Source: a bacterium
Lineage (GTDB): Bacteria > Patescibacteriota > Minisyncoccia > Phycocordibacterales > JAKAEA01
Direction of reading: 5' to 3'
Assembly: GCA_021818465.1 (NCBI GenBank)
Contig: JAKAEA010000001.1
Coordinates: 169,972 to 233,971, forward strand
Length of the DNA: 64,000 nt
The notes beneath the pieces were generated by a model, which was not told where the DNA came from, did no database searches, and worked only from the letters and a program-made list of their open reading frames with translations. Shown in pieces: positions 31,492-37,780 of this stretch (position 1 is its first letter; each line of letters opens with the position of its first letter). A program made the position numbers and the translations under genes.

Positions 31492-32410
31492 TTTTGTGGA
31501 TAACTCCAACGACTCACGTTGGTCGGTAAGGTACAATAAGGCCATTATCATAGCTATTCATTACAATGCCTAAAAAGTTTCTCGGGTGGGTTCTCGTGGC
31601 GGTTGCTGCTGTCGTGCCACTTGCTGCATCAGCACAGCAACAAGGAGGTACTTTTCAGGCGCCACAGGTCTATGTGCAAAATATCCATATCGCTGAAAAC
31701 ACTGTGTTTCAAGGCGATACAGTACACGGCACGTTTGTACTACAAAATCAAGGCACGACCAACGCTTCCAACATTGGCTACCGCATCTCGCTCGTCGGTA
31801 ACTACCAACCCAATACATTAGCAGGTACTTTCTACGACACAAGTGCTCTAAAAGGATCAGTCTTTGTTCCTGCCAATGGTAGTGTTACGGTGCCTTTTAC
31901 ATATACTCTATCTCCAGGTGTGGTGGGTTCTGGAAAAGGTATTCAAATCCAGGCATACACCTCAGCCGGTATTCCACTCGGCTGGTCTGACGACCACATC
32001 ACCATCAACCCCAAACAGGGGATTGTCGTACCGCCCTCACTCGCTATTACCAATGCGCAATTAAAGCTCGGTACCTCAACATTTCCATTGCAAGCGGGGC
32101 CGGTGGTACACGTAGGTGAGCATCCCACACTCATCATCACTCTTGGTTCTTCTACAACACAAAGTGTTATCCCGTATGTCGCTCTCTATAATCGCGTTAT
32201 CATGGGCACCCCATTGCAAGCAGCTACCGGTACGCCTATCGCCATCACACATAAGACCTTCTCTATCTCGCTTCCATTACCTACGACGGCAGGTGTGTAT
32301 GACACGCGGGTGATATTAGCCAATATCGCAGGTGTGCAATTGGCTGCTCCGCTCGATATCCGCTACATTGTGGCAGGTGACATTGTGACGATTCAATCGT
32401 TGACGTCTAA
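31492..32410 (+). repeat. tandem duplication copy A (75-nt leader plus about 830 nt of coding sequence shared with copy B)
   Basis: The leader ttttttgtggataactccaacgactcac...ggtacaataaggccattatcatagctat...cattacaatgcctaaaaag is near-identical at 31492 and 34211. Long perfectly identical nucleotide runs lie inside the ORFs. Confidence 0.8.
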
Positions 32411-35130: not shown

Positions 35131-37780
35131 GACAGCAACGACCACCGCACTTACTGCTGGTAGTGTGGTGACCTTGACCATGCAGTATACCGGTGCGCCA
35201 TTTGATATTCGTACCGGTGCTGTGGTTAACGAACCAGTGTCTACTGTACACATTACACTTACCGATCAAGCTAACAATGTCATTGGTACGTATCAAGGTA
35301 CTTTAGATCCCACAACAGGAACACTCACTGTCCCTATTACACTCAAAAATGCCGCAACCAGTTTGAGCGCTACGGCTACGGTTACGGCACCAAACGGCGC
35401 TCTTCTTGCTACCTACCACACTGTTCTTTTTGAGTACTTCACGTCGTCACACCAGAGTGCTCTATCGCTGTGGCTCTGGGTAATTGTGGCAGTAGTGCTC
35501 CTGCTTATTGTCAGTCTGATTATTTGGTTGATACGTGCTAAAAAGAACCGAATGGCAATGGTACCGGTAGCGATGCTCGCAGTAGCGGGAACTTTGTTTT
35601 GTATGGGAGGGCAGGTTGCACGGGCGCAAATAACTACGCAAATTGCTCCCACTATGACGGCAGAAATGTATGATACGTCGGGTAATCCAGTACAAACCTT
35701 ATTGCCAGGCCAACAATTTTGGGTTCGAGGAACAGTTGTTGATGCGAGTTGTGCAAATGCTGCACAAAGTGCCTCATTCACATTTAGTTCATTGCAATCA
35801 GGAGGAACCACTGTTGCGTATGGTCCATATACACAATCACAAGCGGCATATGATTCTAGTAGTCATTCTGGATGGAATTATTATTTTAACTTTTCCTATG
35901 GTTCGGGATTACCTTCTGATGGCACAGAAATTCCATTCACTGCTCCTTCTACGCCGGGAACATATACGATTACGGTTACGGTAAACACTATTAGTTATTA
36001 CGGTATTGGTAATGGTTACGGTACCGCTTCGGTAACACTTACATATACGGTTGTTCCACTGGTTACTGTAAACCTTTCTCTCGCATCACCTTCAGTTAGT
36101 GTAACGCAAACAACCTCCGCATTAGGAAGTGTGACGTATGCAACCACTACATTAGGAACACCCCTTACGTTAGACTGGAATTCGACCAACGCTACGTATT
36201 GTTCTAATAATTTTAGTATCTCATCTGCGTTAAGTGGTAGTGCAGGAGTGACGCCTAAAACTCAAGGTACATACACCTATAGTGAAAATTGTGGGAATCC
36301 TTATTCTGACCAAACTGGTACTGTTGTGATAAATACTGTTCCACCTCCTCCTAGCGCCACGCTTGCAATTTGGACACCTTCTGGTGACGTTACTGCTACA
36401 AACACTACACCAGGAACGTCTGTTGCATTACAATGGACTGCGCAGAATGCTACATCCTGTACTGCTAATTCCAGTGATCCTTCCAGTACGTTCTCGACCA
36501 ATTCGCAAACAACAGGTACTGCAGGAGTTGCACCCACCACATTAGGTGCACATACATATTCTGTAACATGTACTGGTCCAGAAGGAACTGCAACGTCTAA
36601 TACAGTAGGAGTGAATGTCGCCAATCCTCCCACCGCTACACTTTCCCTAACAACACCAGAACCTATCATAACCAATCAACCTTTTACTCTAGTGTGGAGT
36701 TCAACCAATGCTCAAACGTGTGCTCCTGTCTGGAATGGTGGAGGATTTGCAACATCTAATGCTCCAAGTGGCTCAGATAATGCTGTTGCACTTTCTACGG
36801 CAGGTACCTATACATACCAAGTGCAATGTACTGGTACTACAGGTTTACAAGCGCTCTCTAATACAGTTCCGGTAACTATTTCAAACCCACTTACTCCTAC
36901 TTGCGGACTAGGTGGTCCGCAAATACAAGTTGTCTGGAGTCCTATTGATCCAACGACCGGTAGTGTGCCTTCTCAAGGCTATACCATTACTATTACTGGT
37001 AATCAGGCTCATTTCCCTTATTGGACAGAAAACATATCATCAAATGGTCCTACTTCATTAACGATTCCAACGGTAGCTCTTGGATTCAGTTCGTCAATTG
37101 ACGCTACTCTTGTTCTAGTAGGTGATAGTCCTTATTATGTGGCTGTTACATATAATAATTCAGGCTACCAAACACCATATGCAATGGTTATGACCTCTAC
37201 CTGTCCTATAACTGCACTACTCGATGCAGCTCCGACCACAGTTTCTGTGGGAGAAAATTCAACTCTGTCGTGGACATCTACGGGTGGTGCCACAGTTTGT
37301 AGTGGACAAAGTCCCACAGGAGCACCGACATTTACTGCGAATGGCGGTTTAATACAGGGTTCTCAAAATATCTCATTCACTAATCCTGGTACATATACAT
37401 ACGGTCTTACTTGTACGGATAATAGTGGAATTAGTTCCCCTGTGTCTAATGCAACAATAACCGTGACGCCAGCATCGACACCGGTTATTTCTAGTTTCGG
37501 ATTCGATCCTACTAGTTGTACACCATCACTTAGTTGGACAATAAATAATCTTCCACAAGGAGGAACGTGTTATTTGTCAGATAACAGTGATACTAACATT
37601 GTTCCTGTTAGTAAGGCTTCTGGCACGTATGCACCATCTCCAACACCTGCACTGGGTACGGTATATACCCTGACCTGCGGCAGCAGTGTTGAAACTGCTA
37701 CAGTTCCACAGCCACCCTCTACGTGTTCTGTAACTAAAGTTGCGCCTTCTGGTCAAAACAATAACTTCTTCCAGTTTTAG
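34289..37780 (+). CDS. giant secreted/surface protein, paralog B (same architecture as A, five Cys-pair repeats, C-terminal GQNNNFFQF)
   Basis: 1163-aa ORF. N-terminal ~280 aa are highly identical to paralog A; C-terminal domain is divergent. Confidence 0.7.

Follow-up and report, generated by a model that had tools for sequence, protein, structure and literature searches.

A tandem pair of Parcubacteria-group proteins from a large unannotated, pilus-linked family with a fused two-module design

Introduction

Two tandem genes of 880 and 1163 amino acids, here called A and B, follow the minor pilin genes of a type IV pilus cluster in a 64,000-nucleotide stretch of a patescibacterial genome (GenBank assembly GCA_021818465.1, contig JAKAEA010000001.1, positions 169,972 to 233,971 of the forward strand; Patescibacteriota, Minisyncoccia, Phycocordibacterales). 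This whole stretch is termed the window, and coordinates without a locus name are counted from its first nucleotide. A and B are paralogs belonging to a large unnamed Patescibacteria (Parcubacteria-group) family of predicted bipartite envelope proteins. The family is unannotated, linked to type IV pilus genes and built to an unusual fused two-module design, and the mechanism proposed for it below is plausible. We favor, with a probability of roughly 40%, a reading in which the C-terminal module is a pilus-associated adhesin loaded via its C-terminal peptide and the anchored N-terminal module serves as a membrane dock in a cell without a periplasm.

A considerable portion of bacterial diversity belongs to the Patescibacteria, whose cultivated representatives are found attached to other microbes, type IV pili being essential for this attachment. 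To our knowledge, the factor mediating host recognition is largely unknown outside the Saccharibacteria. The family described here, which comprises hundreds to thousands of sequence clusters and is usually found next to pilus genes, offers a concrete candidate for the recognition component still missing in the Parcubacteria group. With two extracytoplasmic modules that a transmembrane helix and an internal signal peptide connect, and with natural split forms, its layout is unusual for bacteria and suggests how a periplasm-less cell could hold a non-pilin tip protein ready. If the favored reading is true, the recently proposed rule that a C-terminal strand licenses the assembly of type IV filaments would be extended to a deep-branching, monoderm-like lineage.

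Two-Part Architecture of the Tandem Proteins

Gene A (31566..34208) and gene B (34289..37780) are open reading frames (ORFs) on the forward strand, as are all features of the pair given below, and they match the hidden Markov model (HMM) of the family's N-terminal module with E=7.7e-106 and E=1.1e-106, respectively. A preliminary description of this DNA had reported two tandem paralogous giant secreted proteins at 31566-37780 with a conserved N-terminus of ~280 residues and divergent, repeat-rich C-terminal halves. The coordinates are exact and the paralogy is evident from BLASTP (870 columns, 47% identity, E=0), while the term "giant" is generous for proteins of this size. The identity is distributed unevenly, with 72–98% over residues 1–250, in agreement with the conserved N-terminus, 24–36% over residues 450–850, in agreement with the divergence of the C-terminal halves, and 63% over the last 30 residues, outside of which the C-terminal modules share 22–46%. 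Instead of simple secreted proteins, however, A and B are bipartite and contain a membrane hairpin. The mid-protein transmembrane helix, a second segment resembling a signal peptide and the conserved extreme C-termini (NNNFFPF in A, NNNFFQF in B) go beyond what had been described.

Both proteins consist, in this order, of a Sec signal peptide, an N-terminal module (N-module), a transmembrane helix, a basic loop, an internal signal peptide-like segment, a C-terminal module (C-module) and a tail. The signal peptide is identical in A and B, and in A (residues 1–23, 31566..31634) hydropathy and the AxA motif place the predicted cut between ASA and QQ. The N-module of A (residues 24–396, 31635..32753) is composed of three predicted beta-sandwich domains and a short helix according to the family conservation and an AlphaFold2 (AF2) model made from an input alignment of 110 sequences; the predicted local distance difference test (pLDDT) score exceeds 90 over about residues 30–380 and the strands fall into groups at 35–148, 161–269 and 275–376. 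The first membrane segment (TM1, residues 397–417, 32754..32816) has a Kyte-Doolittle peak of 2.95, overlaps a predicted helix at 396–419 and occurs family-wide. It is followed by the basic loop KKKK and the internal segment (SP2), together residues 418–449 (32817..32912), whose sequence pattern predicts a signal peptidase I site between AKA and W. The C-module of A (residues 450–880, 32913..34205), delimited by the HMM of its first domain (C1) and the AF2 model, comprises C1, variable Cys-containing Ig-like domains and the tail, of which the conserved last 12 residues (...GGQNNNFFPF, 34170..34205) are a candidate docking peptide. B is arranged in the same way: the N-module spans residues 24–391 (34358..35461), as judged by the HMM and the alignment with A; hydropathy places TM1 at residues 392–415 and the loop RAKKNR plus the signal peptide-like segment at 416–446 (together 35462..35626), with ARA before Q as the putative site; and the C-module covers residues 447–1163 (35627..37777), with four to five Ig-like modules carrying Cys pairs and the tail ...GQNNNFFQF.

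The predicted topology is that of a protein from which the N-terminal signal peptide is removed, leaving the N-module of ~370 residues outside, a hairpin with a basic cytoplasmic turn and the C-module outside, so that both modules would face outward. In the second hydrophobic segment of A and B, n-, h- and c-regions follow one another as in cleavable signal peptides. Across the family, the loop between the hydrophobic segments has a median length of 5 residues and contains 3.1 Lys/Arg vs 0.12 Asp/Glu, and in 91 of 134 members SP2 is followed by [AVT]xA, a motif seen after the N-terminal signal peptide in 110/129 and after TM1 in 17/134. Signal peptidase I would accordingly be expected to cut at the internal AxA, between A449 and W450 in A and between A446 and Q447 in B. 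Prepilin-type processing of the internal segment was ruled out, as the pattern of G before F-x-x-x-E is absent after the basic loop.

Matches of the C1 HMM lie at residues 449–623 in A and 464–589 in B. The C1 motif PGQxF..G......CxN is present in both, with C492 and N494 nearly invariant. The divergent Cys-pair Ig-like modules, two in A and four to five in B, have only a short signature in common, L-x-W-[ST]-[SA]-x-N-A-x-x-C, of which A contains two copies and B four plus a fifth, looser one seen by eye. The Cys pairs are periodic; a BLAST self-comparison of the C-terminal halves gave no match at E<=1e-3 for B or E<=1e-2 for A, and the label "repeat-rich" is thus weakly founded. The C1 HMM also matches beta-sandwich domains of the N-module in A (27–131, 218–249 and 285–316), an indication that both halves consist of related modules.

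In the AF2 model of A the hairpin consists of two helices, the C-module is all-beta at moderate confidence, and the last 12 residues are coil with pLDDT <50. A Foldseek search of this model against the PDB returned as its top 50 matches generic MG/Ig-like domain arrays with TM-scores <=0.2 and about 10% identity. Of the folds proposed earlier for inspection, the beta-propeller is missing, and beta-sandwich or Ig-like arrays are what the model contains. PorU and alpha-2-macroglobulin were dropped as functional leads, the TM-scores being that low and the likeness that of a generic Ig-like array. Searches against Pfam (E<=10), NCBIfam and PHROGs yielded no usable match to A or B, the spurious ones lying on transmembrane segments only, and PDB sequence searches, by profile or with B alone, yielded none.

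The overall composition is relevant for the alternative of an S-layer-type protein, in which the secreted part would self-assemble into a surface lattice. A and B are large, Thr/Ser-rich (Thr plus Ser about 25–27%), poor in charged residues, all-beta and secreted, and S-layers have been seen on candidate phyla radiation (CPR) cells. However, wall anchors such as SLH, CWB2 and the like were found in neither protein by the Pfam and NCBIfam searches, the transmembrane hairpin does not fit such a protein, and two to four divergent copies per locus with hypervariable C-modules are atypical of a lattice protein; moreover, the family is linked to pilus genes. The preliminary description had offered an S-layer as its alternative, which gained no positive support here and which we regard as highly improbable.

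The region upstream of the genes appears to have been duplicated as well. The 76 nucleotides preceding A (31490..31565) are 92% identical to those preceding B (34213..34288), and the 5' parts of the genes (31566-32100 vs 34289-34820) show a mosaic DNA identity of 0.97, 0.66 and 0.97 in successive 90-nucleotide windows. Both observations suggest a 5' region duplicated with the gene and patchy gene conversion between A and B. Scans for consensus promoters and terminators around A and B gave counts no higher than shuffled controls.

A Large Family with a Natural Split Form

The extent of the family became visible when 1.84 billion cluster representatives were searched exhaustively with a profile, which resulted in 1,857 matches with E<=1e-3, of which 453 had E<=1e-30. 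Word-indexed searching retrieved 7 relatives only, and a word-indexed profile search with a 6-sequence N-terminal alignment returned the query alone, hydrophobic words probably being dominant. The signal peptide, N-module, hairpin and first C-module domain are covered in nearly all of the top 150 of the 1,857 matches, and the full architecture is present in A, B and all close homologs. The named sources of family members are metagenome-assembled genomes of the Parcubacteria group; a sequence identical to gene A is on record in GCA_027341405.1. A phage origin was ruled out, with no relative found among viral contigs.

The N-module is the best conserved portion across the family. The C-modules vary and include adhesin-type repeats, e.g., PKD and Flg_new. 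This combination of a conserved N-module with a variable C-module corresponds to an adhesin-like mode of evolution and is counted in favor of the adhesin reading. Tandem pairs occur in the window and in the metagenomic loci L006, L008, L021, L019 and L036 (L numbers denote metagenomic loci and P numbers family representatives), with paralogs of the same locus usually closest to each other, and the duplications in these six places look independent. N-module identity is 73% between B and L002, 70% between A and B and 60% between A and L002, values by which B appears as the closest ortholog of the single-copy L002 gene and A as the more diverged copy.

A natural split form is found in L008 (2054-10271), where the N- and C-halves are separate adjacent genes, arranged as two successive pairs in tandem, with PilB next. 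The first genes of the pairs (426 and 437 residues) encode a signal peptide and the N-module and end, past a transmembrane helix, with a basic tail. The second genes (863 and 982 residues) start within a few bases and have signal peptides of their own, with sites between KTFA and YT and between FAFA and NS, followed by C1, repeats and the family tail. Both of these C-module genes share the identical end ...TTTAVIYDGTEIEI. BLASTP of a stand-alone C-module gene against residues 435–860 of the fused homolog P0005 gives a collinear alignment that starts inside the signal peptide. As the signal peptide of the separate gene aligns with the internal segment, the internal segment of A and B holds the place of an ordinary secretion signal, which makes A and B fusions between a membrane-anchored and a secreted module.

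Linkage to Type IV Pilus Genes

The pilus cluster upstream of A is composed of PilM, a weak PilN, a weakly GspM/PilO-like gene, PilB, a response regulator, PilT, PilC, a GT2-GtrA fusion, a pilin, a 584-residue membrane protein, a second pilin, PilD (at 27417), three minor pilins and a 472-residue pilin-like protein. The N_methyl prepilin motif was detected in five of these genes (24391, 26757, 28199, 28895 and 29469), and the 472-residue protein without Glu5 comes after them, confirming the five pilin-like genes and the PilX-like gene reported earlier. The three minor pilins (227, 189 and 197 residues; 28199..30062, forward strand), all with N_methyl matches, are probably H-, I- and J-like, judging from gene order and size. 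The pilin-like protein (30044..31462, forward strand; 472 residues, or 467 from Met6) begins with G before FALLY, ends with ...ALQLAGCP, and in its Glu5-less pilin-like start and its last place in the minor-pilin set fits GspK/PilK/PilX; it is referred to as PilK-like below and is a candidate docking partner. It has no Pfam match, and its AF2 model has a mean pLDDT of 41. A PilK-like gene occupies the same position in L002, L031, L033 and L036.

The genomic context of family members, located with a 23-sequence subset of the alignment, was compared in a sample of 19 independent context groups. In six of them the family gene directly follows a PilK-like gene (window, L002, L006, L031, L034 and L036), and the N-module identity among the measured pairs of these loci, in a matrix that does not include L034 and L036, ranges from 23 to 73%. 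Four groups have it directly upstream of PilB(-PilC), namely L004, L012/L025, the P0004 contig and L008, and one has it after a pilin gene (L003/L016/L007). In total, the family gene directly adjoins type IV pilus genes in 11 of the 19 groups. Of five representatives chosen irrespective of their context (P0053, P0030, P0060, P0090 and P0120), all 3 informative ones are pilus-adjacent. In genomes of roughly 500–1000 genes, chance falls far short of explaining adjacency in 11 groups and two arrangements, although the adjacency is not obligatory. The other neighbourhoods place the family gene between FtsH and RecG, as two genes between MurE-EVE and Nramp-TruB, between rpsG and fusA, between NusA and a TPR gene, and between Trx and PLD; on three short contigs it has yet other neighbours. 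The preliminary description had put A and B at the place of PilY1 and tied its proposal to synteny with pilus genes elsewhere. The place after the PilK-like gene recurs in six loci, four groups have the gene before PilB instead, and the gene lies away from pilus genes in eight, so that synteny holds for part of the family.

Two of these loci have further peculiarities. In L009 (82-5250) a family gene separates rpsG (S7) from fusA (EF-G), at a place that normally belongs to the str operon. In L031 a convergent gene just past the family member (15173-17269, reverse strand) encodes a 698-residue, Ig-repeat-rich protein that starts with MKRARLPQERFLTLEALESRVLLS, which is atypical as a signal peptide.

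The same linkage could be explained if the proteins were part of the pilus machine itself, in which case the N-module would serve as a collar, conduit or alignment element that crosses the wall or S-layer of a secretin-less, monoderm-like cell, with the C-module as an outer cap or guide. The N-module is conserved at the level of a machine component, the gene stands after the minor pilins and elsewhere directly before PilB and PilC, and no secretin-type gene was noted in the window's pilus cluster (15.6–31.5 kb). However, tandem duplication with fast-diverging halves is rare in machine components, the C-modules contain the adhesin-type repeats PKD and Flg_new, many copies lie far from pilus genes and there is no sign of oligomerisation, which makes a machine part improbable.

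The C-Terminal Tail and a Candidate Partner

The tail is the best conserved portion of the C-modules of A and B. Statistics on 132 full-length members and 153 unrelated background ORFs from the same loci revealed a penultimate Glu in 97/132 family members vs 6/153 background ORFs. At position -6, 95/132 have Pro or Gly, and the last residue is mostly Ile or Phe, giving the motif [PG]x[FYI]xE[IF], and a shared terminal domain of ~100 residues precedes the tail in 77 members. The clade of the window ends differently, with NNFFPF in A, NNFFQF in B and NNFFTY, GNSFPF, NTFTPF and TNFLQF in others, i.e., with the pattern N-x-F-x-[PQT]-[FY], which can be described as a clade-specific variant.

A function for such a peptide is offered by known systems. 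For PilC/PilY1, modelling, genetics and biochemistry show that the last ~10 residues undergo beta-strand complementation with PilK, are required for pilus assembly and stabilise the tip adhesin (PMC12918778, a 2026 preprint). The same C-terminal docking was predicted for MshQ, a protein of ~1200 residues that is non-homologous to PilY1 and encoded after the PilIJK homologs mshDOP, and in systems without such an adhesin the PilK homolog itself provides the strand (PMC12918778). A peptide that becomes ordered only on its partner would be expected to look like the tail in the AF2 monomer, a low-confidence coil.

The PilK-like proteins themselves fall into two size classes. Enlarged ones of 424–485 residues without a family match are encoded in the window (30044-31462), L002 (2617-3966), L031 (~9935-11275) and L036 (4885-6342); they all end in ...ALQL[AVD]GCP, a conserved strand with a terminal Cys-Pro, and by analogy with PilX of TM7x they may be tip adhesins themselves. 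The Glu-less tail occurs only with these enlarged proteins (window, L002, L031 and L036), and the E[FI] tail with PilK-like proteins of 165–166 residues (L006 and L034). That the tail variant tracks the type of PilK-like protein is suggestive.

Proposed Mechanism and Alternatives

In the reading that we favor, signal peptidase I would cut after the internal AxA, leaving the N-module anchored by its C-terminal helix and freeing the C-module. The variable C-module would be the adhesin, and its conserved C-terminal peptide would dock by beta-strand complementation onto the PilK-like minor pilin, so that the C-module is carried at the pilus tip, as proposed for PilY1/PilC and MshQ. The anchored N-module might hold the C-module at the membrane until it is collected by the tip complex. 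Recurrent tandem duplication and rapid divergence of the C-modules would then lead to alternative binding specificities. In its most complete version this amounts to a one-gene, self-splitting "launcher plus payload", in which an internal signal peptide separates an anchored dock (N-module) from a hypervariable adhesin (C-module) that is captured by the PilK-like pilin onto the tip; we consider this full version unlikely. If it were true, it would be a lineage-specific way of the Parcubacteria to load non-pilin host-recognition proteins on type IV pili, and the tandem, fast-diverging copies would be host-range determinants.

Several points speak against an adhesin at the pilus tip. In 8 of the 19 context groups the family gene lies away from pilus genes. 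The internal cleavage is read from the sequence pattern, and an uncut protein would be membrane-bound and unable to ride on the pilus tip; the dock function of the N-module is likewise a proposal. The tail of the window clade lacks the Glu, and A, B, P0003 and P0120 fail the HMM of the family's C-terminal domain. The association of tail variant and PilK-like type compares 4 loci with 2 and is confounded by phylogeny. Moreover, the strongly conserved strand ...VIVALQLAGCP of the PilK-like protein could be self-complementing, as in GspK, which would leave no slot for A and B. Finally, in Saccharibacteria it is enlarged PilX-type minor pilins that were proposed as tip adhesins (PMC11623550).

Some of these points would be accommodated by a cell-body surface adhesin or envelope protein that acts outside of the pilus. 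Here the N-module would be anchored by TM1, the C-module would be tethered by an uncleaved hairpin or non-covalently bound to the N-module, and the protein would serve close-range host binding or form part of a surface layer, being only co-regulated or co-inherited with type IV pili that gather cells; for the conserved C-terminus, the binding partner would be the N-module, the wall or a PDZ-type reader or protease. In agreement with this, neither PilY1 nor MshQ has a counterpart of the membrane hairpin or of the anchored, highly conserved N-module, and the obligate pairing or fusion of N- and C-modules suggests joint action. Members from the eight groups away from pilus genes retain the tail motif (e.g., L013 ...GDPVEI and L009 ...PNFHEF), and for Saccharibacteria a multistep model with separate close-range adhesins was proposed (PMC11623550). 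However, the pilus adjacency in 11 groups and two arrangements is far above chance, the tail docks in cis on neither the N-module nor the C-module in the AF2 model, and SLH or another wall-binding domain is absent in the domain searches. We regard a cell-body adhesin as the main rival, less likely than the favored reading.

Further Features of the Window

Among the pilin genes, the GT2-GtrA-type fusion (23148-24239) and the 584-residue polytopic membrane protein without a family match (24962-26716) may be a pilin glycosylation pair; a counterpart of the latter with 582 residues is found at the same place in L031/L032. The gene between PilB and PilT (20392-20799) encodes a single-domain response regulator (PF00072, E=1e-21), a position that is kept in L031, L033 and L034. 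Outside of the pilus cluster, a tmRNA gene is located at 2496-2879 on the reverse strand. Of the eight tRNA genes of the window, six are on the forward strand, and five form a loose group at 42451-46349, downstream of ligA-gatCA.

Comparison with Known Systems

The structurally closest matches, the MG/CARDB-like Ig-fold arrays of alpha-2-macroglobulin and complement C3, resemble A and B as strings of beta-sandwiches and were the best Foldseek hits. However, no thioester or bait region is evident in A and B, and the likeness is one of generic fold only.

The modular pilins PilB and PilC of Streptococcus sanguinis represent a monoderm route to an adhesive module on a type IV pilus, with membrane tethering before assembly. 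In these proteins, however, the adhesin and a pilin domain carrying a class III signal peptide form one fusion, whereas A and B have Sec-type signals; neither an N_methyl match nor a class III signal peptide was found in A and B, in contrast to the five positive neighbouring genes. Within the Patescibacteria, PilX1 and PilX2 of Nanosynbacter lyticus TM7x are likewise large proteins with accessory domains encoded in pilus loci and are proposed host-binding tip adhesins (PMC11623550). They are pilin-like and correspond to the 472-residue PilK-like gene of the window, whereas A and B are without a pilin N-terminus.

Like A and B, PilY1/PilC of Pseudomonas, Neisseria and Myxococcus are large, carry a Sec signal peptide, are not pilins and are encoded directly after a PilK/PilX-type minor pilin. 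The extreme C-terminal peptide is conserved in A and B, and one that complements a strand of PilK is known for PilC/PilY1 (PMC12918778); a variable region, putatively adhesive in A and B, is common to both, being N-proximal in PilY1/PilC. The differences lie in the extra conserved N-module, transmembrane helix and internal signal peptide of A and B, and in their host, a monoderm-like CPR cell without periplasm or secretin. The beta-propeller of PilC/PilY1 was found in A and B neither by Pfam (E<=10) and NCBIfam searches nor in the AF2 model and its top 50 Foldseek matches. With no propeller and no sequence similarity, A and B are not members of the PilY1 family, and "non-homologous analog", the term of the preliminary description, is therefore the right framing. 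The conserved end of the C-module agrees with the docking-strand principle (PMC12918778), and the most conserved half, the N-module, is absent from PilY1. A further precedent is MshQ, which has a similar size (~1200 residues), is located downstream of PilIJK homologs and has a C-terminus predicted to dock on the PilK homolog, i.e., the same position and the same C-terminal-strand logic. Homology of A and B to MshQ was not seen, though no search aimed at it was made, and a membrane hairpin or internal signal peptide is not reported for MshQ. For the Parcubacteria-group proteins, a role as non-homologous PilY1/MshQ-like, pilus-linked adhesins is plausible by analogy.

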